From an uncultured Nitrospiraceae bacterium (GTDB taxonomy: Bacteria > Nitrospirota > Thermodesulfovibrionia > Thermodesulfovibrionales > UBA6898), in contig CAWEQH010000010.1 in NCBI GenBank assembly GCA_963811165.1, positions 576,001-640,000 on the forward strand: a stretch of DNA of 64,000 nt. Direction: 5' to 3'. This document shows positions 8,096-25,362 of the stretch, piece by piece. A program made the translations under genes and the position numbers. Positions within the stretch are counted from its first letter, which is position 1. The number at the start of each line of letters is the position of its first letter. The notes beneath the pieces are model-generated. The model was not told where the DNA came from, did not search any database, and saw nothing but the letters and a program-made list of their open reading frames with translations.

Positions 8096-8125
8096 TTGTC
8101 AATGTCGGATCGCTTGAATTATAAT
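8096..8125 (+). promoter_or_regulatory. Sigma70 promoter originally driving tRNA-Ser, now upstream of the attL stub
   Basis: TTGTCA (8096-8101), 18 nt, TATAAT (8120-8125), then 10 nt to the tRNA G1 equivalent at 8136. Confidence 0.8.
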
Positions 8126-8134
8126 GAGAGTCCG

Positions 8135-8156
8135 CGGAGAGGTGCCAGAGCGGTTG
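8135..8156 (+). repeat. attL core: 22-bp copy of the tRNA-Ser 5' end
   Basis: CGGAGAGGTGCCAGAGCGGTTG is identical to 25272-25293. Confidence 0.9.
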
Positions 8157-8274
8157 GCGCAATTTGGGACTTTGCAAAGGCTTGAAAATACCTTAAAAAG
8201 CCTTGCCAGACAAGGATTCACAGGTTATCTTAGTTATTTATAGATAGATATATTTCTACCACTTTTGATGTAAC

Positions 8275-8301
8275 ATTTTCACGTTTTTTTCACGGTGGCG
8301 A
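8275..8301 (+). repeat. Left-arm tandem TTCACG motif (putative integrase arm-type sites)
   Basis: ATTTTCACGTTTTTTTCACGGTGGCGA versus ATTTTCACGTTTTTTTCACGTTGGCGA at 25204-25230. Confidence 0.65.
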
Positions 8302-8733
8302 TTATGGTGTAGGCGATATCTGAAATTGACCTGAAAATGATACGGCCCAGGCCCACTCCAATTTGTCGGCATTTTCCACAACATTCTTGCCAACTTTCAG
8401 GAGAAGCGTCGGGTTCGCCCCGAAATACGCACGGAGATGTACTTCCTCCGCACAAATTTCGATTTGCTGAAACTATTTCTTTCCGTTCAAACTCCGTAAA
8501 ATAGAGGGGGCTCAGCGGACGAGAAGTACTCCCTAAAATTCGCGCCGACAGCCTCTTCTCTAAATTGACAACTTTCAATCCGAAAGAATCGGGCCGGATT
8601 GGATTATGTTTATTCAGAAAGTGGAAGTACCGTTTTTTTTCGACGCCTTAGCTCAGTCTGAATATTTAAGACCGTTCCAAAAATCTCTTTTTTCTAAGGT
8701 TCTGCTTTTTTTCTTAAAAGCGATTTGCATGCA

Positions 8734-10149
8734 TTATCCTGTTTCCTCGCTGACATCACCGGCGGAACCTTCTCCGTCGCTTTGGGCGGACTTACCCTTT
8801 GAGGTGAGATAGAACAGCACGGCCAGTCCGATCATCCCCGAGACGGTGGATCCTGTCAGTATCCCCAGTTTGGCATGATCAAGCAGCAAGGGCTCTCTGA
8901 ATGAGAGGCCGCTGATGAACAGCGACATGGTGAATCCTATTCCCCCCAGGATACTCACGCCAAAGATTTGGGGCCAAGAAACACCACGAGGCAGAGAAGC
9001 GCATCCGGTTCTCACAAAGAGATAAGAAAAGGCGCTGATCCCGATCGGCTTTCCGATGAGCAGGCCGGCGGCGATTCCGAGTGTCAGCGGCGACAGCAGT
9101 GTTTGTGAGAGATTCAGATCGACTATCGTCAGGCCCATATTCGCGAGGGCGAACAATGGGACTACAAGAAAAGCGACCCACGGGTGAAGGGCGTGCTCAA
9201 GCCGCTGCAAGGGGGTCTCCACATGGTGACAGGCGAGCTCGATCGAGTGGACTGAACTCAAATGTTTGGCGTCCTGGAGAATTGAAGGTCCGCATCCCCC
9301 TGGGGGGCAGGAGAACTCGCCCAGATGCTTGCTCACATTCCGGAGAAACTTGTCGGTATCGTACCTTCCTTTAGCCGGTATGAAGAGAGCGACCAAGACG
9401 CCTGCAATCGTTGCGTGGAGCCCCGATCCAAGTACAGCAACCCATAGGCAAGCACCGAGAATAGCATAGATAAGGGTAACACGTATCCAGAGAAGGTTTG
9501 CGACGGCAAGGAGCAGTAAGATGAGAAGAGAAATGAAGAGGTAATGCAGGGAAATCCCGCTGGAATAAAATAGTGCGATCACAATGACGGCTCCAAGGTC
9601 GTCCGCTATGGCGAGCGCAGAAAGGAATACGCGCAGACCGAGAGGAACGCGTTTCCCGAGTATAAATAGCGCGCCGAGGGCAAAGGCAATATCGGTTGCC
9701 ATTGGGATACCCCATCCCTGGCTCGTCGGCAACCCTCTGTTGATGACTGCATATATCGCTGCCGGGAGGAGCATACCGCCGAGAGCCGCGCCGACTGGCA
9801 ATAGGGCCTTTTTCACGGATGAAAGTTCGCCAACGAGGATTTCCCGCTTTATCTCGAGGCCCATGGCAAAGAAGAAGACCGCCATGAGGCCCTCATCGAT
9901 CCACTGCCGGAGGGTCCGGGTGATCGAGGAGTCCCCTATGGAGAAAGAGAGCTGTGTCTCCCAGAACCGATGGTAGGTGTGACCGAAAGGAGAATTAATC
10001 CAGGCAAGGGCAAGGAGGGTCGCCCCGATCAGGAGGATGCTGCTCGATGCTTCATTCCCGAAAAAAATCAGGAAAGGACGAACTAACTCCAAAGCGATTT
10101 TGTCAGGAGACGTCGCATAATGTTTTATCTTCTCGAATAGATTCTTCAT
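8734..10149 (-). CDS. nhaA: Na+/H+ antiporter NhaA
   Basis: LMAVFFF..GLEIKRE, GWGIPMATDIAFA, ALAIADDLGA, LHPWV...PLFALAN, GIGFTMSLFI. Confidence 0.95.
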   Translation of the reverse strand: MKNLFEKIKHYATSPDKIALELVRPFLIFFGNEASSSILLIGATLLALAWINSPFGHTYHRFWETQLSFSIGDSSITRTLRQWIDEGLMAVFFFAMGLEIKREILVGELSSVKKALLPVGAALGGMLLPAAIYAVINRGLPTSQGWGIPMATDIAFALGALFILGKRVPLGLRVFLSALAIADDLGAVIVIALFYSSGISLHYLFISLLILLLLAVANLLWIRVTLIYAILGACLWVAVLGSGLHATIAGVLVALFIPAKGRYDTDKFLRNVSKHLGEFSCPPGGCGPSILQDAKHLSSVHSIELACHHVETPLQRLEHALHPWVAFLVVPLFALANMGLTIVDLNLSQTLLSPLTLGIAAGLLIGKPIGISAFSYLFVRTGCASLPRGVSWPQIFGVSILGGIGFTMSLFISGLSFREPLLLDHAKLGILTGSTVSGMIGLAVLFYLTSKGKSAQSDGEGSAGDVSEETG

Positions 10150-10619
10150 TAGTACGCCCTTACCCTGCTCTTCCCTCTAAACTCACCTCGGCGTGGGACG
10201 AATTCCTGGCAAAAATTATATCTGTCGATTGTATAACCGTCTTTCATGAGGGGAAGTCCTCAATAATTTTTGGAATTGGCATCAACTTTTTCACTTCAAT
10301 TCACTTCAAATGGAAAGAACTTTTCCATCACGAAACGCCCTGATTCATAATAGCGTATAATTCGATGACTTTATAGGAGATTACGTAATGGCGTCAACTT
10401 CATTTTAGATTAATATCCATCAATCTGAGTCATGTGCTTTTTCAGCCTAAATTGTCGTTTTTGCTGTGATTCCGTTGATATATGGGCAAAATTGATATTA
10501 TAACTGCTACTGTCCAAATCCCCTCGAAGGCCTGCGCATTGTACCTTATGCTTGTGAGGTGTGGGAAGCTTATCGGCCTTTCGCAGGTGTCTAAAGATCA
10601 ATAGAAATCTCATCAATTT

Positions 10620-10636
10620 TTTACGAAATCTTTATA
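10620..10636 (+). promoter_or_regulatory. Putative KdpE box
   Basis: TTTACG-N5-TTTATA direct repeat resembling the E. coli kdpFABC site TTTATA-N5-TTTACA, about 65 nt upstream of the first kdp-cluster ORF. Confidence 0.55.
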
Positions 10637-10815: not shown

Positions 10816-11361
10816 ATGAATAAAATGATTCACTCACAATCTTTGCAGTTACTTTGCAGTGGAGATGGCTCATCTCAAACAGCCGTTTTGGAAATTCCGT
10901 TAATTGATGCGCAGGCCTTGGATGCCAGGGGAAATCATTTTGTGGTAATCCCTGTCGCGGAGGTGAACAAGGTGTCGATGAACGCAATTAGTTATGCAAA
11001 AGTTCTTAACGGCGAAATTGTTGCGGTCCACATACTTCTTAAGCCTTCAGACAGGGTAGGGCTCGAATGCATGTGGAAAATGCAGAATATGGATATTCCC
11101 CTTATTATTCTTGAATCTCCATACGGTTCTCTGATTGGGCCGCTCATGGCATATGTGGACGAAATACATCGTTGCAATAAGGAGAGTGTCGTCACTATCG
11201 TATTGCCGGTGCTTATCGGCCTGAAACGCCGGCATCGTTTTTTGCATAACCAAACAGCTCGTTTAATTGAAAGGGCTTTTCAGTCTAAGGCAGGAGTGGT
11301 GACCGTACGCGTTCCGTTTTCTTTAACAGATGCTTCTTCTAAACAAAGTTGTGTTCTTTAA
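10816..11361 (+). CDS. Stand-alone cytosolic C-terminal domain of a KimA/YdaO-type APC K+ transporter
   Basis: VVIPVAEVNKVSMNAISYAK...LIILESPYGSLIGPL..YVD...VTIVLP...LHNQTARLI...VVTVRVPF matches the KimA/YdaO C-terminal pattern; no TM domain. Confidence 0.7.
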   Translation: MNKMIHSQSLQLLCSGDGSSQTAVLEIPLIDAQALDARGNHFVVIPVAEVNKVSMNAISYAKVLNGEIVAVHILLKPSDRVGLECMWKMQNMDIPLIILESPYGSLIGPLMAYVDEIHRCNKESVVTIVLPVLIGLKRRHRFLHNQTARLIERAFQSKAGVVTVRVPFSLTDASSKQSCVL

Positions 11362-11438
11362 CACAATGAGAGACGATTTTGATAACTCCCATGATGATCG
11401 TAAAAAATGAATAAGTATTTTCGCAAAGGAGGTGCGTT

Positions 11439-11519
11439 ATGGACATTGTCTATATCGGTATAGTGGTCGCGTTATTTATCCTCAGCCTGCTCTTCGTGAA
11501 ACTGGCTGAGAAAGTATAG
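11439..11519 (+). CDS. Small hydrophobic peptide upstream of kdpF (26 aa)
   Basis: AAGGAGGT RBS; MDIVYIGIVVALFILSLLFVKLAEKV. Confidence 0.65.
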   Translation: MDIVYIGIVVALFILSLLFVKLAEKV

Positions 11520-11542
11520 GAGAAAAACTTAGGAGGAAAACT

Positions 11543-11635
11543 ATGGAACTGTTCTACTGGATCGGCGGTATTGTAGCGTTCGGTCTTCTCGTGTATCTTT
11601 TTGTGGCTTTACTAAAGCCGGAGGTGTTGTCATGA
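11543..11635 (+). CDS. kdpF: K+-transporting ATPase subunit F
   Basis: [39 protein letters not shown] (YL..AL..PE motif); ATGA overlap with kdpA. Confidence 0.9.
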
Positions 11636-13434
11636 CAGGGAATGACATATTCCAAATTGTCCTATATTTTGGCGTCCTGCTGCTTCTTGCGAAGCCGCTG
11701 GGCGGTTATATGGCGAGGGTTTACGAAAACCGGCCATGCGGTCTTGACCGGGTGTTTGGGCCGGTGGAGCGTATTTTTTACAGGCTTTGCGGCATCAGGC
11801 CAGAAGAGGAAATGGACTGGAAACAATATACGATCGCCGTGCTTGTATTCAGCGTGGCCGGATTCGTCGCGGTATATATGTTGCAGCGCATGCAAGGCAT
11901 ATTGCCGCTAAATCCTCAGAAGTTCCCGGCTGTATCGCCTGATTCGTCTTTCAATACGGCTGTAAGCTTCATAACTAATACGAACTGGCAGGGGTACGGC
12001 GGTGAATCGACGATGAGCTACCTTTCACAGATGGTTGGGCTCGGGGTCCAGAATTTTCTTTCTGCGGCGGCGGGCATGGCTGTTTTAGTGGCGCTGATCC
12101 GTGGGTTCAGCCGACATTCTTCAAAGACGATCGGCAACTTCTGGGTCGATCTCACCCGCACGACTCTGTACATCTTGATGCCTCTTGCGCTGATCTATTC
12201 TCTGCTTCTCGTTTCTCAGGGCGTGGTGCAGACCTTCAGCGAATATAAGAATGTGGCCCTTACGCAGACTATCACCTATGATAATCCGAAGCTCGATGCC
12301 CAGGGCAATCCGATCAAGGACGAAAAGGGAACTCCGGTGACGGAGAAAGCTCAGATGAAGGAGCAGGTCATACCCCTTGGCCCTGCCGCTTCACAGATTG
12401 CGATCAAACAGCTCGGCACGAACGGCGGCGGTTTTTTCAATGTGAATTCCGCACATCCCTTCGAAAACCCGACTCCGTTTTCAAATTTTCTTGAGGTATT
12501 GGCGATCCTGCTGATACCGGCGGCACTCTGCATCACATTCGGGAAGATGGTCGGCGACAGGCGACAGGGCCGGGCTCTGCTGGCCGCGATGACGATCGTT
12601 CTCGTCGTTCTGATGACGGTGTGCGTATGGACCGAACGACAGGGCAATCCGCATTTCGCCTCGCTTGGCATTGATCAAACGGCAGGCACATTGCAGCCTG
12701 GCGGAAACATGGAGGGCAAGGAGGCGCGATTTGGGATAGTAAATTCCGCGATCTGGGCGTCCGCCACTACCGCCGCATCGAACGGTTCTGTGAATGCCAT
12801 GCATGATTCCTTCACCCCGATAGGCGGTCTTATCCCGATGTGGCTGATGATGTTGGGAGAGGTCATATTCGGAGGCGTCGGCTCCGGTCTTTACGGTATG
12901 CTGATATTCGCTATCCTCACCGTATTCATCGCCGGCCTGATGGTCGGCCGAACACCGGAATATCTGGGCAAAAAGATCGAGATGTTCGAGATGAAGATGA
13001 CCATTCTTCTGATGCTGATTATCAATGCCCTTGTCAAGGTCGGAACGGCGGTTGCTGTTTCTATGAAGGCCGGGGTTGCGGGCATCGCCAATCCCGGGCC
13101 GCACGGTTTTTCTGAGATACTGTATGCCTTTACGTCGGCCTCGAACAACAACGGCAGTGCTTTTGCGGGTTTGAGCGCCAATACTGTTTTCTATAATACG
13201 GCCCTCGGCATCGTGATGTTCATCGGCCGCTTTTGGGCTATAATTCCCGTGCTGGCAATCGCCGGCTCTCTGGCGAAAAAGAAAAAGGTGCCGGTCGGAT
13301 TAGGGACTCTGCCGACCCATACCCCTTTGTTCGTGACCTTTTTGATTGGTGTCATCCTGATCGTCGGAGCTTTGTCGTTCGTGCCTGGCCTGGCGCTCGG
13401 ACCGATAGCCGAACAGTTGATGTCCGGCAGATAA
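11632..13434 (+). CDS. kdpA: K+-transporting ATPase subunit A
   Basis: [60 protein letters not shown]. Confidence 0.97.
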
Positions 13435-13458
13435 CAAAATACGGATTGTGAGGAAATT

Positions 13459-15531
13459 ATGACCAGAAAAACTAATAAAAGATCTCTTTTTGAACCGACA
13501 ATTGTACGTCGGGCCTTGTGGGATTCGGTCAGGAAACTGAATCCGGTACATCAGATAAAGAACCCGGTGATGTTCGTGGTGGAGGTGGGCAGCGTTCTCA
13601 CGACCCTCCTTTTCTTCCGCGCACTTACCGGCAAAGGTGAGGCGTCTCCGGGCTTCATACTTCTGATTTCGATCTGGCTCTGGGTAACAGTGCTCTTTGC
13701 TAACTTTGCCGAGGCGATGGCGGAAGGCAGGGGTAAGGCCCAGGCTGAATCATTGCGTAAGACGCGAAGCGACGTCACAGCAAAACGCCTTGCCAAGGAG
13801 GACCGGAATTCCGAAATCACCAAAGTGTCTTCTGCCCAGCTCAAGAAAGGCGATATCGTGCTTGTAGAGGCCGGCGATACGATTCCTATGGACGGCGAGG
13901 TGATCGATGGCGTTGCCTCGGTGAATGAAAGCGCTATTACTGGCGAGAGCGCTCCTGTGATCAGGGAAAGCGGCGGAGACTTCAGTTCCGTGACCGGCGG
14001 CACGAAGGTGCTGTCCGACTGGATTGTGGTGAGAATCACCGTAAATCCCGGTGAGACGTTCCTCGATAGGATGATTGCCATGGTTGAAGGCTCAAAGCGG
14101 CAGAAGACGCCGAATGAGATCGCCCTGGACATACTGCTTGCAGGTCTGACGATCATCTTTCTGCTGGTGACCGTGACCTTGCTTCCATTTTCGATCTTCA
14201 GCGTTCAGGCGGCAGGCCAGGGAAGCCCTGTCACCATAACCGTGCTTGTCTCGCTTCTGGTCTGCCTGATCCCGACCACAATCGGCGGACTTCTTTCGGC
14301 TATCGGCATCGCAGGTATGGACCGGATGATCCAGGCCAATGTGATCGCCATGTCCGGCCGTGCGGTGGAAGCGGCAGGAGATGTTGACGTGCTGCTTCTC
14401 GACAAGACCGGGACGATTACACTCGGCGACCGACAGGCCACCGCGTTTTTTCCCGTTGCGGGAGTAGATGCGCGAGCCCTCGCCGATGCGGCCCAGCTTG
14501 CGTCCTTAGCAGACGAAACTCCTGAAGGGAGAAGCGTCGTTATTCTGGCAAAAGAAAAATACGGGATTCGCGAAAGGGACATCCATTCCCTCGGCGCGGA
14601 ATTTGTTCCTTTCACTGCACAGACAAGGATGAGCGGCGTAAATCTCAACGGTCGTCAGATCCGCAAAGGCGCGGCGGACGCGGTCGAAAAATATGTCCAG
14701 TCACAGGGAGGAACGTTTCCGTCTGATATCCGCGCAATCGTCGACGATATCGCAAAACAAGGTTCAACACCGCTCGTCGTGGCCGAAGGACAGAAAGTGC
14801 TCGGTGTTATTCAGCTGAAAGATATTGTCAAGGGCGGAATTAAAGAGAGATTCGCTGAGTTGCGGAATATGGGGATCAAGACGATCATGATCACCGGAGA
14901 CAACCCGCTCACTGCCTCGGCGATTGCTGCCGAAGCCGGGGTCGATGATTTTTTGGCGGAGGCAACGCCCGAGGCCAAACTGAAGCTCATCCGTGAGCAC
15001 CAGGCTGGAGGTAGACTCGTGGCCATGACCGGAGACGGCACAAACGACGCGCCGGCGCTGGCACAGGCCGATGTGGCCGTTGCGATGAACACGGGCACTC
15101 AGGCAGCAAAAGAGGCGGGCAATCTCGTTGACCTCGACTCCAACCCAACGAAGCTGATAGAGATCGTGGAGATCGGAAAGCAGCTACTGATGACGCGCGG
15201 CACGCTCACGACCTTCAGCATCGCAAACGACGTGGCGAAATATTTCGCGATCCTGCCGGCGGCGTTTCTTTCGATCTATCCGGCGCTTGGTGCGCTTAAC
15301 ATTATGCACCTGGCCACGCCGCAGAGCGCAGTGCTTTCAGCCGTGATCTTTAACGCGCTGATTATAATTTTTCTGATCCCGTTGGCGCTTCGCGGTGTGA
15401 AATATCGGCCTCTCGGCGCGCATGTGGTCTTACGCAATAACGCCCTGATTTATGGGGTCGGCGGGCTGGTTGTTCCGTTTATCGGCATCAAGCTGATCGA
15501 CATGCTCATAACAGCCCTGCATATAGTATGA
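13459..15531 (+). CDS. kdpB: K+-transporting ATPase subunit B (P-type ATPase)
   Basis: [32 protein letters not shown]. Confidence 0.97.
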
Positions 15532-15544
15532 AACGGAGGAAATC

Positions 15545-16123
15545 ATGATAAGAATGATTCGCAACACACTCATGTCTCTGTTACTCTTCACAGTTATCAC
15601 CGGGTTTATTTACCCCCTGGCGGTGACAGGCCTGGCCCAAGTGATATTTCCTGGCCAGGCAAACGGGAGCATCATAACGAAGAACGGCAAGCCCGTGGGC
15701 TCCGAACTGCTTGGACAGCAGTTCGAAGACCCGAAATATTTCTGGGGAAGGCTTTCCGCGACAACCCCCTATCCCTATAACGGAGGTTCGTCATCCGGCT
15801 CTAATCTCGGCCCGAACAACCCTGACCTTATGAAGGCCGTGCAAGCAAGGATTCAGGCCCTGCGCGAGGCTGATCCGGGCAATACAACGAAGATACCGGT
15901 TGACCTGGCTACTGCCTCAGGCAGCGGACTTGATCCCCACATCAGCCCTGTGGCTGCTGCGTATCAGGTGCAAAGGATCGCAAAGCTTCGCGGCGTCGAT
16001 GAGGCAAAAGTCAGCGCATTAGTGGCTGCCAATACCGAAGGCCGGCAGTTCGGGTTTCTGGGCGAGCCTGTGGTGAATGTGCTCAAACTGAATCTGGCAC
16101 TTGATGACCTCGGTCAGAAGTGA
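15545..16123 (+). CDS. kdpC: K+-transporting ATPase subunit C
   Basis: QANGS...GSELLGQQF...YFWGRLSA...[10 protein letters not shown]...[11 protein letters not shown]. Confidence 0.97.
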
Positions 16124-16150
16124 GAGGTGAAAATACTGAAGGGCAAACCT

Positions 16151-16540
16151 ATGACAAAAGACAGAATTGAAAAAATAATTGCATTTCTGCTCTTGGTGGC
16201 TATCAGCGCGCCCTTGACTGCGTTTGCCGTAGACTATCCGGTCCAGCTTTATCATCGGGAGGTGAGGCACGACAAGTTTGTCAAAGGCGACACAGTGTAC
16301 ATGTTTCATAGCGGCACTGAAGACGTAAAGAAGACCATTCACGTTAACGATACGCTCGCTGTTTATCGGGTGTCCCCGACTTGCGAAGTAGCGCCAATTG
16401 GAATAGTCAAGATAGTCTCCTTTGTCGGAGAAACATATATCAAGGGAGAGGTCTTTGCCGGCGAGATTAAGCCTGATGATATAGCGAAAAAGGATAATGT
16501 TTCGTGTCTTATCATCTCGGCAGGTGTATGTGAACATTAA
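16151..16540 (+). CDS. Hypothetical exported protein
   Basis: Signal peptide ending AFA; beta-rich body; co-oriented directly after kdpC. Confidence 0.6.
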   Translation: MTKDRIEKIIAFLLLVAISAPLTAFAVDYPVQLYHREVRHDKFVKGDTVYMFHSGTEDVKKTIHVNDTLAVYRVSPTCEVAPIGIVKIVSFVGETYIKGEVFAGEIKPDDIAKKDNVSCLIISAGVCEH

Positions 16541-16739
16541 TCTGATAATGAAGCATTGGCGGTGCGGGGTGCCGTCGTCATGCCCCACACAGTCGGCGAA
16601 AAGTTTGGACACCGCGGGGCAATTGCCCTGCAGGTCACGGTCAACTGCCGTTAGATGGAGACCATAATTATTAATTCTAATTCAAAAAAGGGGCTTTTCA
16701 GCTTTCTCAGGAGGCCCCCTTTTAAAAAAGGATGGAGCA

Positions 16740-16961
16740 ATGGAATCCCTTAAACAAAAATTAAAGGAAATTGAGAAAGACGAAATCATTCACGCGCTAA
16801 AAGAATGTAACTGCGTGAGGACCAGAGCCGCCAGAAGGCTGGGCATTACTGCAAGGATGATCGGATACAAGATCAAGAAATACGGCTTAAGGATAAAGGA
16901 GGTGGGCTCTGTCGAGGATGGCGACGCAGAGCAACACGGACACCAGGAATACATGGGATAG
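16740..16961 (+). CDS. Stand-alone Fis-type HTH (HTH_8), NifA C-terminal-like, copy 1
   Basis: EKDEIIHALKECNCVRTRAARRLGITARMIGYKIKKYGL; GGAG RBS; no AAA+ domain. Confidence 0.75.
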   Translation: MESLKQKLKEIEKDEIIHALKECNCVRTRAARRLGITARMIGYKIKKYGLRIKEVGSVEDGDAEQHGHQEYMG

Positions 16962-17009
16962 AGAGAAGTGGTTTTCCAACCACAAACTCAGAAAGAAAAA
17001 AGGAGCATC

Positions 17010-17321
17010 ATGAAACTAATAGAAGCAGTGATAAGGCCTTTAAATTTGGAAGAGGTGGAAACAGCCCTTAAAGAAATGGGAGTGGAGGAAATAGGGGTTG
17101 AGGAAATATTGGTTAGCCGACTCTCAAGTAACGGCTTCGGGAAAGGGGTGTTGTACCGTGGGGCGGAGTATGTGGCAGACTTCATGACAAAAATGAAAGT
17201 CGAGATTATCGTTGAGGATGGTCTTGTGGACAAGGTTGTCGGAACAATCCGCAAGATTGCCAGGACGGACCGGAAGGAAGATTGCCGGATATTTATCCTC
17301 CCTCTCGTTGAAGCATTTTAG
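17010..17321 (+). CDS. Divergent P-II family signal transduction protein
   Basis: MKLIEAVIRPLNLEEV..AL...GFG...YRGAEY..DF..K.KVEIIVED..VDKVV..I; B-loop and C-terminus are degenerate. Confidence 0.8.
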   Translation: MKLIEAVIRPLNLEEVETALKEMGVEEIGVEEILVSRLSSNGFGKGVLYRGAEYVADFMTKMKVEIIVEDGLVDKVVGTIRKIARTDRKEDCRIFILPLVEAF

Positions 17322-17421
17322 GCATGCACTCTCTTAGCCGCGGGGCAGTAGAAGAGCTCTAGTTAAGAGCCGAGCGTTGCATACGCTCGCATCAGCACGT
17401 GCATAACCCTGGAGAGAATAA

Positions 17422-17622
17422 ATGGTAACACTAAAAGATAGACTGAAGGATGTGGAGAAACAGGAGATAATAAGCGCCCTCAAAGAATGTAACTACGTGA
17501 GAGCCAGAGCCGCGAGAATGCTGGGCATTACTGAAAGGATGATCTGTTACAAGATCAAAAAATATGGCTTAAAGATAAAGGAGGTGGGCTCAGTCGAGGA
17601 TAACGGAGCAGAGGAACGCTGA
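17422..17622 (+). CDS. Stand-alone Fis-type HTH (HTH_8), NifA C-terminal-like, copy 2
   Basis: EKQEIISALKECNYVRARAARMLGITERMICYKIKKYGL; DNA closely similar to copy 1. Confidence 0.75.
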   Translation: MVTLKDRLKDVEKQEIISALKECNYVRARAARMLGITERMICYKIKKYGLKIKEVGSVEDNGAEER

Positions 17623-17676
17623 CAGCAGAAATGGCAATACAGGCTTTATTTTTTTGAAATGAAAAAGGAGGAGACG

Positions 17677-18831
17677 ATGAAAAAGATTATTTTTGGAATC
17701 GCTTTTGCGATTCTGATGACATTCACAGTAGCTGGAGGGGTATGGGCCGACGAAGCGAAGCCGGCGGACACTACTGCTGCAAAGCCGGCAGGCACAAGCC
17801 TGGACGACATCAAGAACATGCTCGGCCTGAGCATTTATCTTCAGGGCGGATACAATTATAATTTTACCAACCCCGATTCGCAGGAAAACAGACTCAGGGT
17901 CTTCGACCATAAGGCGAACAACTTTACCCTCGACCTGGCTCAGATTGTTTTCAACAAGGATGCCGCTGTCGGGGGTGTCGGCTACAGGCTGAAACTCTCG
18001 GCCGGCGAGACGGCGAAGTTCATTCACGCTGCCGGTCTCGGCAATACCGGTGATGCGTTTGACCTGACAGAGGCGTATATCGCCTATGTCGCTCCGCTGG
18101 GCAAAGGCCTCAAGTTTCAGTTAGGGAAGTTCGCCACTTTTACCGGTGCGGAGGTGATCGAGGCAAGGGACAACATGAACTACTCGCGCGGCCTCCTTTT
18201 CAACTGGGCTATACCCTTTACCCATACCGGCCTTATGATCGGCTATCCGTTTAGCGACAAGGTGAGCGCGAATTTCTATGTGGTCAACGGCTGGGACAAC
18301 TTCAGCGAAGATACCGGCAGCAGCAAGACCCTCGGGCTGAATTTCAACTGGACCCCTGCAGAACAGTTTTCGCTTGCGGTGAACTTTCTGAACGGCCGGG
18401 AGGTCATTGCCGGCGGAAGCGATGTGCGCACGAACAGGTTCCTTTCGGATACGGTGATCACGATAAAACCGATGAAGAACCTCACCTTTGTGATAAACCC
18501 CGACTGGGCGTCGCAGACCGGTGCAGCGTCCGACGGCTCAAGGGCAGAATGGTATGGAGTGGCGGGATATGTGAAATATGACTTCAGCGATATGATCAGC
18601 GGAACAGTCAGGGCCGAATACTTCGACGACAAGGACGGCTTCAGGACAGGCATCGCGCAGAAGGCGAAAGAGGTAACCTTTACGCCTGAGTTCAGGGTTG
18701 CGAAGAACCTCATCGTGAGGCCGGAATACCGTCACGACTGGTCCGACATGAACGCATTCGATTCAGAACATGGCACGTTTGACAAGAAAAGCCAGGATAC
18801 CATTGCGCTCGGCGTGATGTATACGTGGTAA
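17677..18831 (+). CDS. Outer-membrane beta-barrel porin (putative porin-2/OmpL-like)
   Basis: Signal peptide, GKFATFTGAEVIE...NYSR..LF..AIPFTHTG, NGWD, RPEYRHDWSD, C-terminal aromatic YTW. Confidence 0.8.
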   Translation: MKKIIFGIAFAILMTFTVAGGVWADEAKPADTTAAKPAGTSLDDIKNMLGLSIYLQGGYNYNFTNPDSQENRLRVFDHKANNFTLDLAQIVFNKDAAVGGVGYRLKLSAGETAKFIHAAGLGNTGDAFDLTEAYIAYVAPLGKGLKFQLGKFATFTGAEVIEARDNMNYSRGLLFNWAIPFTHTGLMIGYPFSDKVSANFYVVNGWDNFSEDTGSSKTLGLNFNWTPAEQFSLAVNFLNGREVIAGGSDVRTNRFLSDTVITIKPMKNLTFVINPDWASQTGAASDGSRAEWYGVAGYVKYDFSDMISGTVRAEYFDDKDGFRTGIAQKAKEVTFTPEFRVAKNLIVRPEYRHDWSDMNAFDSEHGTFDKKSQDTIALGVMYTW

Positions 18832-19050
18832 TTGTTTCAAACAAGGAATAAGAAAGTAAAAGAGAAAGTTCTTGAGTCTCTTTGCGATTTTGTGGTTTTA
18901 CTATCGGCAAGCCTTTTGTTTGCCGAGGAACAGGTGTGGACTAACCCTCCTTCTCAGGCTGGACAGGATGCGCCCTGTTCAGCCTGCACCTGCAGCTTTT
19001 GACGACAAAGAGGAACGGACAATGAAAGAATGGAAAGGAGAAGGGTCACC

Positions 19051-19320
19051 ATGGGACTCACCCAGGCTCAAATAGAAAGAATAACATCGCTGGCGAGATC
19101 CTACGGGGCGAACCGGCTCATACTTTTCGGCAGTGCCGTCGAAGATCCGGAAAGGGCACGCGATATTGACCTGGCATTTGACGGGGTTCAGGGATGGAAG
19201 CTTTTTGAATTGGCAGCTAAAATCGAAGAAGAGCTGCATATGCCCCTGGATCTGGTACCGTTAAATCCTCCCTCACGGTTTACAAAGCATATTGAAGGCA
19301 ATTGCAAGGTGTTGTTATGA
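19051..19320 (+). CDS. Minimal nucleotidyltransferase (MNT) antitoxin
   Basis: ILFGSA...RDIDL (GS..DxD) motif; overlaps the HEPN gene. Confidence 0.85.
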   Translation: MGLTQAQIERITSLARSYGANRLILFGSAVEDPERARDIDLAFDGVQGWKLFELAAKIEEELHMPLDLVPLNPPSRFTKHIEGNCKVLL

Positions 19321-19775
19321 TAGCCGATGACCTCAAGGCCGAAATCGATATTGGCATAGAATCGATTGAAACCGCACTGGAAAAGCTTGCCGCTTTGTAC
19401 GTTGATGTGGGAACACGCAGACCTACCGTCCGGGAGAAGACCGCTGCCGCGACTTTCTTGGCCCAGTTCTATGGTGGCATAGAAAACATCCTTAAGCGCA
19501 TCAGTTTATTCCATAACATGCCTATTCCGACCGGCAAGACTTGGCAAATGGACTTATTTAAACGATTTTGCATTCCTTCTTACCGCTCGCTTCCAGAGTT
19601 GATTGATGAATTTCTTGCATCAGGTTTGTCTCCCTACCGCAGGTTCAGACACGTTTTTCACCATAGTTACAGCTTTGAGTTGGAGTGGGAAAGGATGAAA
19701 GAGGGCATAGAAAGGGCCCCTCATCTATTTGTTTGTTTTAAAGAGACGGTGTTGAAGTATGCACAAGACTTATAA
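19317..19775 (+). CDS. HEPN-domain RNase toxin (HepT-like)
   Basis: FYGGIENILKRI...RFRHVFHHSY (Rx4H-x-Y); paired with the MNT gene. Confidence 0.8.
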   Translation: MIADDLKAEIDIGIESIETALEKLAALYVDVGTRRPTVREKTAAATFLAQFYGGIENILKRISLFHNMPIPTGKTWQMDLFKRFCIPSYRSLPELIDEFLASGLSPYRRFRHVFHHSYSFELEWERMKEGIERAPHLFVCFKETVLKYAQDL

Positions 19776-19854
19776 AGAGACATAGCAGAGATGGCAAGAA
19801 ATAAAGTTGGGCGACTATTGAGCTTCGATCCCTTTACTAAAAAAAAGTACGACA

Positions 19855-19881
19855 GTGAAACTCCCCGCTTACAAAGCGGGG
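19855..19881. repeat. REP-like / IS200-IS605-end-like hairpin
   Basis: GTGAAACT followed by the perfect stem CCCCGCTT-ACA-AAGCGGGG. Confidence 0.4.
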
Positions 19882-20066
19882 TATTCTGCAGGAATTTCAT
19901 AAAAAACTTACCTTTTTATAAATCTTTTCGGAGCCATTAATAGTGGAAGAACGACGTCATGAACGTGATCTGATTCTTGATCTCATATCGGTGAATATCC
20001 TTATTTGCTTAAGATCGAGGAGAAAGCTTGAAACGAAACATTTTACCCGAATGGTAAAAGAATGGC

Positions 20067-20771
20067 ATGTTACATGATAACGGACTAATTCTGTTGATCG
20101 AAGATGAGCCGCAGATTCGGCGCTTTCTTCGCGTTACCTTGCCAGCCCACGGTTATCGGTTAATTGAGTCTGACACAGGAGAAGAGGGACTGCAGCGGGC
20201 GACAAACCGCAATCCCGATATCGTCCTTCTCGATCTTGGGTTATCAGATATGGACGGGATCGAGGTGACGAAAAGGTTTCGCGAGTGGAGTGAGGTGCCG
20301 ATCATAGTCATTTCGGCGCGGGAGCAGGAAGAGGACAAGATCAAAGCGCTTGATGCGGGTGCTGACGACTATCTCACCATACCATTTGGAGCCGGAGAAC
20401 TGCTCGCTCGAATACGAGTAGCCCTCCGCCACAGGGCCATACTCCAGTCAGGACAAAAAAAAGCTGAATTCACTCTGGGTGACCTCAGGGTGGATCTTGC
20501 AAACAAACAGGTATTTCTGAAGAATGGGGAGATTCATTTGACACCCACAGAATATCGGCTCTTGCTAGTTTTGATTAAAAACGCCGGCAAAGTTGTACCC
20601 CATATTCAGTTTCTGGAGGAAGTGTGGGGGCCATCTTGTGCTGGTCGGACTGAGTTCGTTCGTGTATACATGGCGGGACTTCGGCACAAGCTCGAGGAAG
20701 ACCCTGCGCACCCAAAGTTTTTGATAACCGAACCGGGTATTGGCTACAAGCTGAAGTTGGTGTTGATGTAG
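20067..20771 (+). CDS. kdpE: KdpE-type OmpR-family response regulator (conserved receiver Lys replaced by Ile)
   Basis: IEDEPQIRRFLR...PDIVLLDLGL.DMDG...FREWSEVPIIVISAREQEEDKIKALDAGADDYLTIPF...LRHKLEEDPAHP.FLITEPGIGY. Confidence 0.85.
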   Translation: MLHDNGLILLIEDEPQIRRFLRVTLPAHGYRLIESDTGEEGLQRATNRNPDIVLLDLGLSDMDGIEVTKRFREWSEVPIIVISAREQEEDKIKALDAGADDYLTIPFGAGELLARIRVALRHRAILQSGQKKAEFTLGDLRVDLANKQVFLKNGEIHLTPTEYRLLLVLIKNAGKVVPHIQFLEEVWGPSCAGRTEFVRVYMAGLRHKLEEDPAHPKFLITEPGIGYKLKLVLM

Positions 20772-21321
20772 CACATGTTTAGTTGATTATAGTAAACGAT
20801 GTTAATCTGAAGGACCAGAAGACGTGCATGGTTAAGTCGCAGGTCAGCGCTTGCTCGATGATGAGAACATGGAGGGAAACAAACATTCGGGGTTAACCCT
20901 TCATTCCGTAATCGTGACCCATCGGCCAACATGCAAAAACAAGACTTGTGGCTGTAAGTAAGATTTTGAAATCGTACCCGCTGGCGTTTCTTTCTGGATG
21001 TACATCGCAAATTTCATCTCAATGCAGGTATGCATGTTTGTATGAGCTATCGTGTGTCAGCTAAAAGCAAGCCGGTGAGAGTTAGCCGGGTGGAACAGAC
21101 AAAGGGACGGTGCATGGTACGAGGAAAAACGTGGACGCTGGCCTTGTTAACTGCTGCGGTCTGTTCCCTTGCCACCCCTGGCAATCTAACGCTGGAATAG
21201 GTGGCCGGATTCGCCGGAATCTCCAGCAATTACTGAGAGTCAGACCATCCAGGAGAAAAGTGTCTCTAAAAGAAATGTTTTTGAGACAAATAGCACATGG
21301 AGGTTAAGTCAAAAGGTGTTA

Positions 21322-21594
21322 TTACTGACGAAAAAGGTCTGAATGGCTTCCGGTCCTCTCAAAGTAAATTGTATCTCCTGCTACTCGATAGATCAAAACC
21401 CAATCAGGTTCTATGTGGCAATCCCGTGAGTCTTTAAACTCCCCTGTTAAAGGGTGGTCATTGTGCTTCGGGTCAAGTGACTCCTGCTTTTGGAGCTTCC
21501 GCATGATTTTGCGGAGTTTCTCAATTTCCTTATGCCGCTTTTGCATCCTTTTGTAGTCTCTCTCAAATTTGGTAGTAGTTTGGATTTTGAGCAC
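21322..21594 (-). CDS. yafQ: YafQ-family mRNA interferase toxin
   Basis: FERDYKR...DHPLTG.FKD.RDCHIEPDWVLIY...RTGSHSDLF. Confidence 0.9.
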   Translation of the reverse strand: MLKIQTTTKFERDYKRMQKRHKEIEKLRKIMRKLQKQESLDPKHNDHPLTGEFKDSRDCHIEPDWVLIYRVAGDTIYFERTGSHSDLFRQ

Positions 21595-21854
21595 TACTTC
21601 CCCATTTTATCGAAGAACTCATCAAGGTTATTGTGGGAATGCATTTCTTTCCCCTGGCGAGACTTCCGAAGCGTTTCCGCTGTCTCTTTATTCGGCAGCT
21701 CGACATTGAAGGGAAGCCCCCTTCTCAAAATAACCTGTCTGTAGAAAAGGGTGATCGCTTCTGTGCTGGACAATCCCAGCTTTTTTAAAATACCCTCCGC
21801 TCCTTCCTTTAAGACCGGCTCTACTCTTGCCCTTATAGTTTCTGTCTTCGCCAT
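21594..21854 (-). CDS. dinJ: RelB/DinJ-family antitoxin
   Basis: MAKTETIRARVEP.LK..AE.IL..LGLS..EAI.LF..QV....GLPF...PNKET. Confidence 0.85.
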   Translation of the reverse strand: MAKTETIRARVEPVLKEGAEGILKKLGLSSTEAITLFYRQVILRRGLPFNVELPNKETAETLRKSRQGKEMHSHNNLDEFFDKMGK

Positions 21855-22155
21855 GCCTATTATCTCCTTTCTTGTTCTATTGTACCCCATATGAGGAGCA
21901 AAATAAAAATTATTTTACGTGCACTTTCTGTACTCCTCATTAAGAGCCCTTGCCCTCGAAGGGAAAGCCGTTCGGTTAAAGGCGGGGCCTTCTTCTTTGA
22001 CAGCATCTCACACACCTCGGACATCTCACTAAGCGTGTTGAATGCCTATAGAAACTGTTTAAAAAGTACCACCCCAAGAAAGTAGAAAGCGAGAAGTCAC
22101 TGGAAAGGAATTTCCGGAGACTTTAAAAAAACGAATAGATCTCTGCCACTGAGTT

Positions 22156-22290
22156 TTAACTTGCCTCCGCGATCTGTATTTCTTCATCACTGAGCCTGTA
22201 GAGCTCATAGACAAGTGTATCAATCTTCCTCCTGATAATGACACACCTACTCTCATAATAAGTTCGATCTTTATCAGTTACGGATTCCCT
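22156..22290 (-). pseudogene. 3' remnant of a type IIG/IIC (Eco57I/TaqI-like) restriction-modification gene
   Basis: Minus frame reads DKDRTYYESRCVIIRRKIDTLVYELYRLSDEEIQIAEAS*, matching the ID.LVYELYGL..EEI.I.E tail of these enzymes. Confidence 0.6.
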
Positions 22291-23144
22291 CTTTTGACGA
22301 TTGCTCCCACAGGCGCAACCAGTCTTCTCCGGGGGAACATCTCCTCGGGGGTCTAGCCGATCCTTTACCTGACAGTGCAGCGTGAGATCAGGGAGACCGA
22401 CGACAAAAAGAGGAAGGTAATTATAGACGACTACGCCTACAGGGTATGGAAGAGCGCAAACGGCAAGGGGAAGGAACCTGAAGTGCTCATCTCCTCACAG
22501 ATACCCGCCAAAGGCCATATCGACATTATGGCTGCCTTCCAGGAATTCTTCGACGCGTCGATCTCGAAAACGATTGTCTTTGACCCCAACACGAGCTTCG
22601 AGGACTTCAGGGACACCTACCTCTACGCCTATGAAAAAGGACTCAAGGGGTGCACGGTTTACCGCGACTCCGGAAAACTCGGCGCCGTGGTAAAGGCCAA
22701 AGACGACGGCTACATCAAGCCGATGGAACTGCCCGGAGAGAGGGTAAAGCGCGCCATCCATGTGGAGATCCCCAACGAGGGCGCGTACGAGGTAGAGGTA
22801 AACGTCGTTGATAACAAGCCTCGCGAGGTCTGGCTGCACGCCCCTGTGGAGCAGAGCGCCGCCGCGCTGATCGAGGCCGTCGTCCGGCTGTCGAGCATCA
22901 TGCTGCGCTGCAACATCAACCCCAGGGACGTCATGAAGCAGCTGAGAAAAGCGAACATGAGTTACGGGAGTGTCAGTAATCCTCTGGCATACATCGAAAG
23001 AGCGCTTCTTAGGGTGATGGGGGCCGTCGGCGTTAAGGATGCTCAGGTGAGCGCGGCATCGAGGTGCCCTTATGCGGAGGAGTGGTCGTCATGGAGGAGA
23101 GTTGCCTGAAGTGTTCCTCCTGCGACTGGAATAAGTGCAGTTGA
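22291..23144 (+). pseudogene. nrdJ: 3' remnant of a class II (B12-dependent) ribonucleotide reductase
   Basis: LLTIAPTGATSLL.GNISSGV*P (stop at 22354 replacing E of the IEP motif), HI...AAFQ...D.SISKT, GLKGCTVYRD; terminal Zn ribbon CP.CGG...EESCLKCSSCDWNKCS* is out of frame by 1 nt near 23071. Confidence 0.8.
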
Positions 23145-23301
23145 CAGTGTGAAGACGAGAAGGTATTGGCCGAGGCGACCTGGTACTGCCAAGCTCGCCT
23201 CGGCGTTGCACCCAGAACGCGGCGGGACAACCCATCACAAAGAAGGTTTTGACAAGTGACGTATAAAGAAGTATTCTATATACGTACAAAGGAGGTGCGG
23301 A

Positions 23302-23550
23302 ATGCATACGAAACTTACACTTCGTCTGGACGAGAGACTGATCGAAAAAACCAAGAAAATCGCCAAGGCCCGTAATTTGAGCCTGTCGGAAATGGTTGCC
23401 GGCTTCTTTAAGTCTATTACAGGCAGCTATGGAGAAGAGGATATCTCATCACCCGTTTTGTCCGAGATATCAGGGATTTTGACTGGCAAGCATGGCGCCA
23501 AGACCCTGCGCGGCACATACAAACGGCATATTGAGGAGAAATACCTTTGA
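23302..23550 (+). CDS. DUF6364-family antitoxin
   Basis: MHTKLTLRLDERLIEK.K..AK....SLSEMV..FF...ISGIL...Y..HIEEKYL. Confidence 0.8.
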   Translation: MHTKLTLRLDERLIEKTKKIAKARNLSLSEMVAGFFKSITGSYGEEDISSPVLSEISGILTGKHGAKTLRGTYKRHIEEKYL

Positions 23551-23960
23551 AATCAGCTCTCTGCGACGTCAACTTTTTCCTCGACATCTTCCTGAAGCGT
23601 ACGCCCTTTTATTCCCCTGCCGCCAAGCTCTTCGCTAAAATGGAAAGAGGGGAAGTGAAAGGGTATATATGCTCGTTGACCTTTCCAATTCTGTTTTATC
23701 TGCTTTCGAAAGAGATTGGGCGTGTGCAGGCCGCAAAAACCCTTGAGAAGATCAGAATTGTTTTTAGAGTGGCTGCTGTTGATGAAAAGGTTATCGACTT
23801 GTCCCTTGCTTCCGATTTTCAGGACTTTGAAGACGCAGTGCAATACTATGCCGCCATGCAGGCGGGCGTGGTCTGCCTGATCTCGCGCGATAGGGGCGAC
23901 TTTACCGACAAAAGAATTCCCGTGTTGACCCCTGAGGAGTTCCTCGCTATTAAGAGCTGA
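23547..23960 (+). CDS. PIN-domain (VapC-like) toxin
   Basis: DVNFFLD...DFEDAVQY..A...ISRDRGDF...TPEEF. Confidence 0.85.
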   Translation: MKSALCDVNFFLDIFLKRTPFYSPAAKLFAKMERGEVKGYICSLTFPILFYLLSKEIGRVQAAKTLEKIRIVFRVAAVDEKVIDLSLASDFQDFEDAVQYYAAMQAGVVCLISRDRGDFTDKRIPVLTPEEFLAIKS

Positions 23961-24034
23961 AAGGGATCGGCGCTGTTTTAAGATGAGATTGTGAGAGAAG
24001 ATAGATTAAAATGGACGTATAACAGGAGGCGCAA

Positions 24035-24172
24035 ATGATCTCACAGAAAGCCGACTCCAGCCACCATAAGCCTGTGCCGACCATGACGGAATGGGCGATG
24101 ATAGTGTTCGTGATGTTTGCCGGAGTCGGGGCGATTTATTATCTGAGGAGACAAAAAAGAGCCCGAGGATAA
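24035..24172 (+). CDS. Orphan IPTL-CTERM sorting-signal peptide (45 aa)
   Basis: AGGAGG RBS; MISQKADSSHHKPVPTMTEWAMIVFVMFAGVGAIYYLRRQKRARG (VPTxxEW, TM helix, basic tail). Confidence 0.6.
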   Translation: MISQKADSSHHKPVPTMTEWAMIVFVMFAGVGAIYYLRRQKRARG

Positions 24173-25031
24173 ACAAACTTTATAAAATAATCTCTTCAGG
24201 GCTGGGAATAGGACTCGCCCTTTTTTCCCGCGGTGCGCCTAATTATTTCTTTTTTTCGTCGAAAGTCCATAATACATTTCCGGTGAAACCACAATAAACT
24301 TTCTGCTCTTTGTTATGGCTGCTTTATGATGGAAGAGCCACTATGTTCGCGTTGATTTCAGGAGGCAATTTCGTTGGCAGTGGAGCTTCTTCTTTCGTCT
24401 TGATTACGACATGAAGTCTGTTCATAGGAGTTGGAACGTTTGGACCTGATTTTGTGAATGTCTCAAAGTCCTGGTAGGAAGGAGTGTCGGTGCCTTCCGA
24501 CATTCTCAGCAGGTTGCGGGGTAAAGCCTTACAGACTTTTCCAAGGATTGTATAATTGCAGTCTAAGATATAAAAGCGTGTGCCAAGAAAATTGCCAGAG
24601 GATTTTGAAGGAAACGATCTCTCACATTTGTGCCATTCTTCTCAGTTCAACGAAAGAACGGGACAACTCCTATGTAAAATTTGAGAGGTGGTTCGAAGTT
24701 GATTAATCAATCAATTTTCAATTACGGCAGTCCAAGCATCTCCTTTCAGACCGTAGCCTTCGAAGATTGCCCGCCGCCTGTCTCGAGTTCCAAAAAAGGT
24801 GTGTCCGTCCGGGACCGAGCCCCGATCTCGCTCGATCAGGTTTAGAGCGCGTGACGGAATCGTCCCTTACTGGTTATCCTTTAGTAATTCAAGTAATAAG
24901 CTTGCCCCTCGCCCCACCCGATTTGGATACACTATTCCTCGCCGGTCCTGAGGTCCGCATTTTTCGGGTAGATATTCTGGACACCTGAACGCCAGGATCA
25001 CGGCAAAGGAGTGAGAAATCAGACCCGATTG

Positions 25032-25293
25032 TCACGTTTTCTTCACGTTAGTAAGGTTGTTAATACATAAGGGCCGTGATTCATAATAACCAATTACACG
25101 GAGGTGCCAGAGTGGTATTTCACGTTTTGTTCACGTTGGTGAGGTTGTTAATACATAAGTCCTTGATTTATAATAACCAATTGCACAGAGGTGCCAGAGC
25201 GGTATTTTCACGTTTTTTTCACGTTGGCGAGGTTGTCAATACGTAAGCCTTTAATTTATAATAACAATTCACGGAGAGGTGCCAGAGCGGTTG
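25032..25293 (+). repeat. Three tandem ~88-bp att/promoter units (starts 25032, 25120, 25208)
   Basis: Each unit is TCACGTTTTNTTCACGTT, GGTTGT(T/C)AATAC, (T/C)ATAATAAC, then GAGGTGCCAGAG(C/T)GGT (tRNA 5' stub). The third runs into the intact tRNA. Confidence 0.9.
25233..25262 (+). promoter_or_regulatory. Island-supplied sigma70 promoter for tRNA-Ser
   Basis: TTGTCA (25233-25238), 18 nt, TATAAT (25257-25262), then 10 nt to tRNA G1. Confidence 0.8.
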
Positions 25294-25362
25294 AATGGGA
25301 CGGTCTCGAAAATCGTTGTGGGGGCAACCCCACCCAGGGTTCGAATCCCTGCCTCTCCGCCA
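25273..25362 (+). tRNA. tRNA-Ser(CGA)
   Basis: GGAGAGG/CCTCTCC acceptor stem, anticodon arm ACGGT-CT-CGA-AA-ATCGT, long variable arm, GGTTCGAATCC, encoded CCA. Confidence 0.97.

Follow-up and report, generated by a model that had tools for sequence, protein, structure and literature searches.

The window analyzed here (64,000 nucleotides from the genome of an uncultured Nitrospiraceae bacterium) carries a 17.1-kb island, without an integrase, in the D-loop of the single tRNA-Ser(CGA) gene; very probably a tyrosine integrase of a clade frequently found at tRNA 5′ ends inserted it there, and its right arm likely supplies the tRNA promoter. Both element arms are in place, each with arm repeats, the integrase is absent, and the empty site is present in relatives. 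The 22-mer spanning tRNA nucleotides -1 to 21, which the preliminary description had reported as duplicated, does start at 8135 and again at 25272, 17,137 bp apart, and these are its only two copies in the 3.66-Mb genome searched, where Ser(CGA) is single-copy among 47 tRNA calls. The left copy lies behind TTGTCA-18-TATAAT and 10 nt (hexamer span 8096-8125) and the intact tRNA on the right behind identical hexamers at identical spacing, 10 nt before position 1 (25233-25262), just as had been described; the exact pattern occurs four times in the genome, two of them being these sites.

The same description had expected that relatives with an unoccupied site would hold a DUF1992 gene, the promoter, tRNA-Ser and zur side by side. 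Two genomes of the same genus (G001 and G002, which are other species at about 80% nucleotide identity, not sister strains) do have such a site: a DUF1992-like gene, a left-type promoter, the intact tRNA-Ser(CGA) and znu genes. The first three are contiguous as expected, but the tRNA is followed there by znuC without zur. The flanks of the 17.1-kb segment are colinear with G002, and the left promoter is 89% identical over 46 nt to the empty-site promoter of that genome. Because these two relatives hold the site empty, the left promoter is the host's own and the 17.1 kb are an insertion in the tRNA D-loop; the idea that the host promoter was orphaned thus stands, since at the empty sites it is the left-type promoter that stands before the intact tRNA. 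To judge by its match to the consensus, the orphan may fire into the left arm.

Table 1. Features of the island and its flanks, by position in the window.
Feature	Position	Strand	Remarks
Host flank: DUF1992-like gene (Pfam DJC28_CD)	7619..7990	+	Syntenic in G001, G002
Original host tRNA-Ser promoter, now orphaned	8096..8125	+	TTGTCA-18-TATAAT
attL core: displaced 5′ tRNA fragment	8135..8156	+	nt -1 to 21
Left element arm (P′)	8157..8300	+
Cargo: NhaA Na+/H+ antiporter	8734..10149	-	Converging on attL
Cargo: kdpABC potassium pump	11632..16123	+
Cargo: two Fis-type HTH genes, P-II protein, BBP2 porin	16740..18831	+
Cargo: three toxin-antitoxin-type pairs, KdpE-like response regulator, ribonucleotide-reductase fragment	19030..23960	.
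Right-arm unit 1, most decayed	25028..25116	+	19-nt spacer, CATAAT, ends at tRNA nt 19
Right-arm unit 2	25116..25203	+	Arm repeats, TTGTTA-18-TATAAT at 25145-25174, tRNA start to nt 19
Right-arm unit 3 (attR)	25204..25293	+	Arm repeats 25206-25223, TTGTCA-18-TATAAT 25233-25262, core
Intact tRNA-Ser(CGA)	25273..25362	+	ARAGORN
Host flank: Fur-family (zur-like) gene and znu-type ABC genes	25506..28522	+	znu syntenic at empty sites

We place the crossover in the D-loop, probably within tRNA nt 13-21. In five other attL- or attP-type junctions the identity ends at nt 21 (three cases), nt 23 and nt 26. Judged by eye, register 13-19 for a putative 7-bp overlap has inverted repeats that are perfect (6 bp) in G190, match at 5/6 in the island and are poor in G227, G252 and G318; register 15-21, likewise by eye, has the D-stem at its centre.

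Besides the missing integrase, two features go beyond the preliminary description: the right end of the island consists of three tandem 88-bp units (25028-25291), each with a doubled TCACG repeat, a promoter-like site and a tRNA start, and the left arm carries the same doubled motif at 8277-8294, along with a minus-strand terminator-like hairpin at 8201-8215. (The 88-bp units are not CRISPR-like repeats, as there are no spacers.) Matches to the doubled repeat number four in the window against 0.10 expected, and none of 100 shuffles reaches four. Doubled arm-like repeats stand at 8277 on one arm and at 25030, 25118 and 25206 on the other; relatives place them alike, and in all six attL-type arms aligned the doubled repeat lies 120-140 bp into the arm. 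Aligned with the attL arm of G190, the left arm shows 69% identity (shuffled mean 47%, maximum 56%). Repeats on both arms fit a lambda-like tyrosine-integrase att system, in which they would be the putative arm-type sites.

It had also been claimed that the attP of the element encodes a promoter mimic that rescues the tRNA. The best reading is that the element integrated at the 5′ end and brought a promoter-like site with it, because of the empty sites and the matches to attP arms described below; that the site is a mimic is unproven, as capture or conversion of the host copy could give the same hexamers. We consider it possible, though less likely than not, that insertion took place as in the main reading but the promoter on the right derives from the host, by capture or gene conversion, and was not evolved by the element (a view that varies the origin of the promoter alone and is compatible with the main reading). 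Units 2 and 3, with TTGTTA- or TTGTCA-18-TATAAT and 10 nt to +1, are of the host type (which recurs in 8 of 20 further family members; G001-G005), Ser-type arms from other families differ in the -35 region, unit 3 shares 66% identity with the host promoter (46 nt) versus 57% with the G190 arm, and in G013 one TCACG motif lies directly before a host-type promoter. The IHF-like spacer and the AT-rich stretch before tRNA +1 in unit 3, however, follow the pattern of the elements in G190, G227, G252 and L098 and not that of the host, in which the 10-nt stretch is GC-rich; relative to what we take to be the IHF consensus, the host promoter has three mismatches, unit 3 has one and unit 2, with a perfect IHF-like site in its spacer, has none.

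In four other genomes, elements with an integrase occupy this tRNA site; the right end of the island matches their attP arm, and its units align with the attR of such elements. Together with the empty sites, this supports the original proposal of integration at the 5′ end. G227, G252 and G190 have an intact xis and tyrosine-integrase module directly upstream of tRNA-Ser(CGA), ending 30-70 bp before it, with a matching 5′ stub elsewhere; G318 has an integrase and a 5′ stub, and also a triplet similar to the tandem arms of the island. Inside the G227 attL, a NikA/MobC-like gene alongside unassigned ORFs suggests that the family includes mobilisable elements. Ten genomes besides that of the window have at least two matches, and among the nine examined only G227 and G252 have true 5′-stub elements, the rest being short hairpin-type duplications (G047, G271), whole-gene duplicates (G133, G115) and other Ser tRNAs or second copies (G260, G200, G295). 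Across the phylum, the stub pattern was found in 2 of 401 genomes: that of the window and, as a hairpin-type case, G126. Among 56 loci from a scan of viral contigs, no free attP of the integrase clade was seen; one locus came from a scan of metagenomes, and it combines an integrase remnant with the matching arm layout. The genome of the window has a second case, where an integrase remnant, arm repeats and TTGACC-18-TAATAT precede tRNA-Leu(TAG).

Within the island itself, neither a PF00589 search across the interval nor tblastn gave a match to an integrase. No replication, capsid or conjugation genes are among the 30 ORFs scanned, and on these ORFs the island does not qualify as a PICI, prophage or ICE. 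The toxin-antitoxin-type pairs are nucleotidyltransferase/HepT-like, RelB/YafQ and DUF6364/PIN, and the response regulator is called KdpE-like as an interpretation of its Response_reg plus Trans_reg_C match and its context. The island shows no sign of distant origin, because its GC content matches that of the host and its kdp genes are closely related to a paralogue elsewhere in the genome (a second kdpABC copy on contig C8, 87% identical over 4.6 kb).

Almost every element that targets a tRNA gene restores its 3′ end, the usual explanation being that reversal needs a promoter to be brought along. Our survey of the integrase clade covered 80 distinct members, with 33 on the 5′ side of the adjacent tRNA, 37 on the 3′ side and 10 without a called tRNA; the 5′ share (33/70, about half) may be inflated by the survey query, itself a 5′-type integrase. 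Displaced 5′ fragments were located for 14 of the 33 5′-side loci, and in the DNA covered for the other 19 (limited by contig ends or distance) no stub was found. A quick tree gives at least five switches of orientation, and tRNA-Arg(CCT) is used from either side by close relatives. A proximal sigma-70 promoter (a consensus match of at least 9/12, at least 4/6 in each hexamer, -10 ending 4-13 nt before the tRNA) is present at 19 of the 33 5′-side loci versus none of the 37 on the 3′ side; by a looser total-of-9 criterion the 5′-side count is 20/33 (shuffled mean 0.97, maximum 5). One subclade holds 17 of the 19 promoter-positive loci, and the contrast therefore rests on about three lineages. 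A first version of the test (28/33 versus 3/37) was dropped, as its “extended -10” matches were often the arm repeat itself.

These counts bear on another account, which we judge improbable: that most transcription of the tRNA reads through from a gene of the island, in the manner reported for archaeal pTN3-like integrase promoters, the arm hexamers being by-products of an AT-rich IHF site. The 5′-side integrases do share the orientation of the tRNA, three of five Ser-type relatives score just 0-7 of 12 in the proximal-promoter test, and an IHF-like site is found at the matching place in 32 of the 37 3′-side arms, which need no promoter. However, the island has no integrase gene to read from, its nearest Pfam-matched co-oriented gene stops 1.3 kb upstream, the promoter score is best in the unit adjacent to the tRNA (11/12) and drops with distance (10, then 9), and the proximal promoter is missing from every 3′-side arm. 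In the main reading, it is the right-arm promoter that likely drives tRNA-Ser(CGA) now.

Less probable still is that no integrase acted at all (a local duplication of promoter and tRNA start split by unrelated insertions, or a left copy that is an assembly artefact): the missing integrase and host-like GC would suit it, as would the contigs listed from four DNA runs of one study, short and low-depth, some identical to pieces of island and flanks and none with an att joint or a bridged junction, but homology links the left arm to an attL that accompanies an integrase in another family, the stub-plus-arm layout is shared with four other genomes, the empty-site promoter is matched by the left promoter and not the right, and the flanks are colinear with G002.

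Under the main reading, a circular element would have carried, in order, arm repeats, an IHF-like site inside a sigma-70 promoter, tRNA nt 1-21 and the P′ arm, and its recombination with the tRNA in the D-loop would have left the host promoter on a 21-nt stub. The xis-int module would have been lost later and the promoter-bearing arm kept, because the tRNA would need a promoter. The three tandem arm copies may reflect later insertions of related elements with their bodies deleted, or duplication, and today the island could move only if a related integrase acted in trans.

Precedents are in print, each separately, for 5′-end islands, D-loop sites and island-supplied promoters (tRNA or dusA); the comparisons that follow are with the relevant portions of those sources. 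In the Islander collection (PMC4383910), a 5′ fragment is found in 159 of 3,919 islands; a further reference on tDNA islands with a displaced 5′ fragment is Zhao and Williams (2002, as cited in PMC6563490 and PMC1635311). Like these islands, ours is bounded by an intact tRNA gene and an upstream 5′ fragment in the same orientation, within the 2-200 kb that Islander allows, with an uninterrupted target in relatives (G001, G002) and a tyrosine integrase in its intact relatives. It differs in that Islander demands an on-board integrase, a filter that an island without one would fail though working alike, and in its D-loop crossover, the subsites given in that portion of the paper being only anticodon, T-loop and junction. 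That 5′-end targeting is rare, as had been stated, holds for Islander (about 4%), but not for the sampled Nitrospirota clade (33/70). The Klebsiella arg2 islands (tRNA-Arg 5′ end, integrase clade I.d; bioRxiv 10.1101/2020.11.02.365908) likewise lie upstream of the tRNA, and their recombination site takes in the 5′ acceptor half, D-stem and D-loop, the last termed a novel sublocation by the authors; our island is in another tRNA and another phylum, and a replacement promoter or tandem arms go without mention in the matching text of that study. Islands of the dusA-associated integrases (PMC4482086) also replace the 5′ end of their target, and putative -10/-35 sites have been described for the uninterrupted target and, as replacements, for the integrated state; dusA, however, is a protein-coding target, and PCR has shown that its islands excise. 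For the archaeal pTN3-like integrases, attB is the tRNA 5′ half and element DNA drives expression of the restored gene, an arrangement seldom met in bacteria according to the portion of the review consulted (PMC8371274). In those elements the integrase gene itself contains the att site, is split on integration and has the promoter that drives the tRNA; a split integrase of this kind is ruled out here, since the Ser-type relatives have whole integrase ORFs (351-364 aa) that end before the tRNA and before a separate promoter-like site in the arm.

Taken by itself, then, the window locus is a neat, not an unprecedented, example; the reversed layout is known but rare elsewhere, and about half of the related integrases sampled from the class of this bacterium use it. 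A literature search, with most subscription papers outside its reach, found no published description of the clade or of tandem arm-promoter scars. We tentatively suggest that this clade flips repeatedly on tRNA genes, each flip making the IHF-site region of attP a sigma-70 promoter, and that the arms persist as tandem promoter scars which pass transcription of a single-copy tRNA to mobile DNA (possibly under Int/IHF control, and without the host's GC-rich discriminator), with integrase-less islands mobilisable in trans. D-loop islands without an integrase escape the tools that require one. In the genome of the window, a single-copy tRNA would depend on island DNA; the right end could therefore not be lost by imprecise deletion, which would explain why the arms were retained and multiplied. 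Because tRNA-Arg(CCT) is used from both sides, 3′-form arms contain an IHF-like site and 5′-form arms often a promoter, and orientation switched at least five times, the clade is a natural test set for how elements reverse the 3′-end rule.

Re-analysis recovered both copies of the 22-mer from the start of tRNA-Ser that the preliminary description had placed at the ends of the island, and these are its only two occurrences genome-wide. The identical promoters reported with them are also there: TTGTCA-18-TATAAT precedes each copy with the same 10-nt spacing; the hexamer pair with its 18-nt spacer occurs four times in the 3.66-Mb genome. Among 47 tRNA calls, the intact tRNA-Ser(CGA) is the sole gene with that anticodon. 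In a search of 40 relatives for an empty site, the DUF1992-like gene was present in 19, and two members of the window genome's genus (G001 and G002) have the expected order of DUF1992-like gene, left-type promoter and intact tRNA-Ser(CGA), followed by znuC; the zur-like gene that had been predicted next to the tRNA, and that separates it from znuC in the window, is missing at both. G002 is colinear with the window on both sides of the island, and over 46 nt its promoter is 89% identical to the left promoter and 63% identical to the right one. Of 20 further family members, 8 also have the left-type promoter ahead of this tRNA, none with an integrase match within ~1.5 kb upstream. Taken together, the empty sites, the G002 identities and the promoter type in the family identify the left promoter as the host's and the right one as island-borne; the original observation is real, and its interpretation as an island in the 5' end of the tRNA gene that brought a putative replacement promoter is supported. 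At one locus (L199, in the related genome G013), a single TCACG arm-like motif lies 48 nt upstream of tRNA-Ser(CGA), spaced as in the element arms, beside a host-type promoter and without an integrase nearby; it is possibly the scar of an element.

On the right side of the island, a repeat search found three tandem 88-bp units abutting the tRNA, numbered from the farthest (unit 1) to the nearest (unit 3, the right junction attR). They are 84% (1-2), 83% (2-3) and 76% (1-3) identical, units 1, 2 and 3 have promoter scores of 9, 10 and 11 of 12, respectively, and in units 1 and 2 the tRNA start is matched up to nt 19, after which the next arm repeat follows. Their doubled TCACG repeat recurs in the left arm (four matches across the window vs. 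0.10 expected). TTGTTA and similar states, common to units 1 and 2 and absent from unit 3, hint faintly at a later-arriving arm. The related genome G318 has three tandem arm-promoter-tRNA-start units ahead of an attL (left junction), with a repeat that differs from the window's, a junction at nt 15 and decay that grows with distance; it is an independent parallel, so the window's triplet is no one-off. At four other loci, the tRNA-Ser start is duplicated in units of ~110-330 bp broken by a GC-rich hairpin, the longer of which contain a short ORF, putatively GIY-YIG nuclease-like by eye.

Coordinates of features in the window, elsewhere in its genome (G000) and at related loci
Feature	Sequence	Positions
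22-mer of tRNA start, left copy	window	8135
22-mer of tRNA start, right copy	window	25272
Doubled TCACG repeat, left arm	window	8277
Intact tRNA-Ser(CGA)	window	25273-25362
zur-like gene	window	25506-25940
Colinear with G002	window	3843-7984; 25910-28547
kdp region	window	10930-16530
kdp counterpart	G000, C8	550762-556517
212-bp direct repeat	window	16739-16950; 17421-17632
Tyrosine-recombinase clusters	G000, C1	479486-480833
	G000, C8	72129-73477; 546336-547682
	G000, C10	462088-463421
tRNA-Leu(TAG) locus (L214)	G000, C8	610576-610969
Tandem triplet	L195 (G318)	1273-1515
Duplicated tRNA-Ser starts	L027 (G047)	11858-12609
	L098	294-706
	L209 (G126)	1206-1522
	L028 (G271)	1605-1803
Viral sites	L109	1043-1930
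	L125	4148-5070

Pfam annotation of 30 of the 101 listed ORFs identified nhaA, kdpABC, P-II, a porin, a response regulator, a ribonucleotide-reductase fragment, two Fis-type HTH genes and three toxin-antitoxin-type pairs as cargo, and the island's GC content resembles the host's. All 20 PF00589 matches in the genome lie outside the island, and tblastn with two related integrases found no integrase homologue in the window. The kdp region has a counterpart (87% identical over 4.6 kb) on contig C8 of the same genome, which neighbours a group of tyrosine-recombinase matches; the genome holds four clusters of adjacent matches of this kind, resembling recombinase-in-trio elements. A 212-bp direct repeat (80% identical) lies on either side of the P-II gene, each copy coding for a stand-alone Fis-type HTH.

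Intact relatives at tRNA-Ser(CGA) came from a pattern search over 301 genomes of the order (G252 and G227) and from an integrase search (G190 and G318). G252 has a tandem pair of elements; there and in G227 a tyrosine integrase, accompanied by an excisionase-like gene (HTH_17), ends 50-70 bp upstream of the tRNA, and the 5' stub is present. The window's left arm is 69% identical to the attL arm of G190 (shuffles: mean 47%, maximum 56%), a doubled repeat lies 120-140 bp into all six attL-type arms, and the right units align with the relatives' attR arms (doubled repeat, ~48 nt that include an IHF-like site as well as a -10-like hexamer, and finally the tRNA). Identity to the tRNA stops at nt 21 in the window, G190, G227 and the left G252 site, at nt 23 in G318 and at nt 26 in the middle G252 site, endpoints that would place the crossover within the D-loop, with 13-19 or 15-21 as candidate 7-bp registers. 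On two viral contigs, a distantly related integrase precedes a tRNA-Ser cut short to its 5' part, without a full tRNA; these are candidates for free 5'-type attP sites in other lineages.

With the G227 integrase as query (E <= 1e-60), matches were found in 81 of the 390 genomes of the class. We surveyed 30 returned loci, 40 more listed matches, 11 from another search and the window genome's own copy, leaving out the weakest listed matches. Among 80 distinct integrases, 33 are co-oriented upstream of a tRNA (5'-side; Leu 14, Arg 7, Ser 5, Sec 3, Gly 2, Thr 2); for 37 the integrase and a tRNA are arranged tail to tail (3'-side), and for 10 no tRNA was called. The displaced 5' fragment was located for 14 of the 33, and the non-Ser fragments end at nt 38-42, in the anticodon arm. 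A quick, unrooted maximum-likelihood tree of 69 rows (excluding the 10 without a tRNA and one short row) requires five changes of orientation, each imposed by well-supported branches, vs. ~23 with shuffled labels; tRNA-Arg(CCT) is targeted from either side within the clade. Named records with clade integrases are mostly Nitrospirota. At three loci (L155, L055 and L063), clade integrases end beside the 3' terminus of a protein-coding gene instead of a tRNA, a placement that suggests a further target switch.

A proximal promoter (at least 9 of 12, with the -10 ending 4-13 nt upstream of the tRNA) is present at 19 of 33 5'-side vs. 0 of 37 3'-side loci, one subclade accounting for 17 of the 19. 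Three of the five Ser-type arms score low. At six more 5'-side loci, an extended -10-like site lies 20-41 nt ahead of the tRNA. IHF-like sites (at most one mismatch to an IHF-like consensus) occur in 32 of 37 3'-side and 8 of 33 5'-side arms. The window's genome holds a second such case on C8, where an integrase 3' remnant, a doubled arm repeat and TTGACC-18-TAATAT lie directly upstream of the single-copy tRNA-Leu(TAG); a search for its 5' stub found none, and the promoter is apparently a domesticated element promoter.

Every ingredient of the window's arrangement has precedent. Islander records a 5' fragment in 159 of 3,919 islands and crossover subsites at the anticodon, T-loop and junction (PMC4383910); Klebsiella arg2 islands lie upstream of the tRNA with a D-loop site (bioRxiv 10.1101/2020.11.02.365908); dusA islands bring a putative replacement -10/-35 (PMC4482086); and archaeal pTN3-like integrases target the 5' half, as bacterial ones "seldomly" do (PMC8371274). 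Our literature search found no description of this integrase clade or of tandem arm scars, and a single clade that combines a high 5' share with repeated changes of orientation, arms that carry promoters, and tandem scars appears to be undescribed.

The insertion point, arms, repeats, absence of an integrase and layout of intact relatives are demonstrated; around them we propose that an integrase would have catalysed integration in the tRNA D-loop, that the tRNA would now be transcribed from the unit 3 promoter, and that the right arm may have been retained because the tRNA depends on it. The triplet may have grown via repeated insertion and deletion, or via duplication. No plus-strand terminator was found at 7900-8800, so the orphan host promoter could read towards the nhaA 3' end. 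In stable-RNA promoters, the composition of the stretch before +1 bears on stringent control; since this stretch is GC-rich in the host promoter and AT-rich in the arm promoter, the two are predicted to differ in their stringent control.
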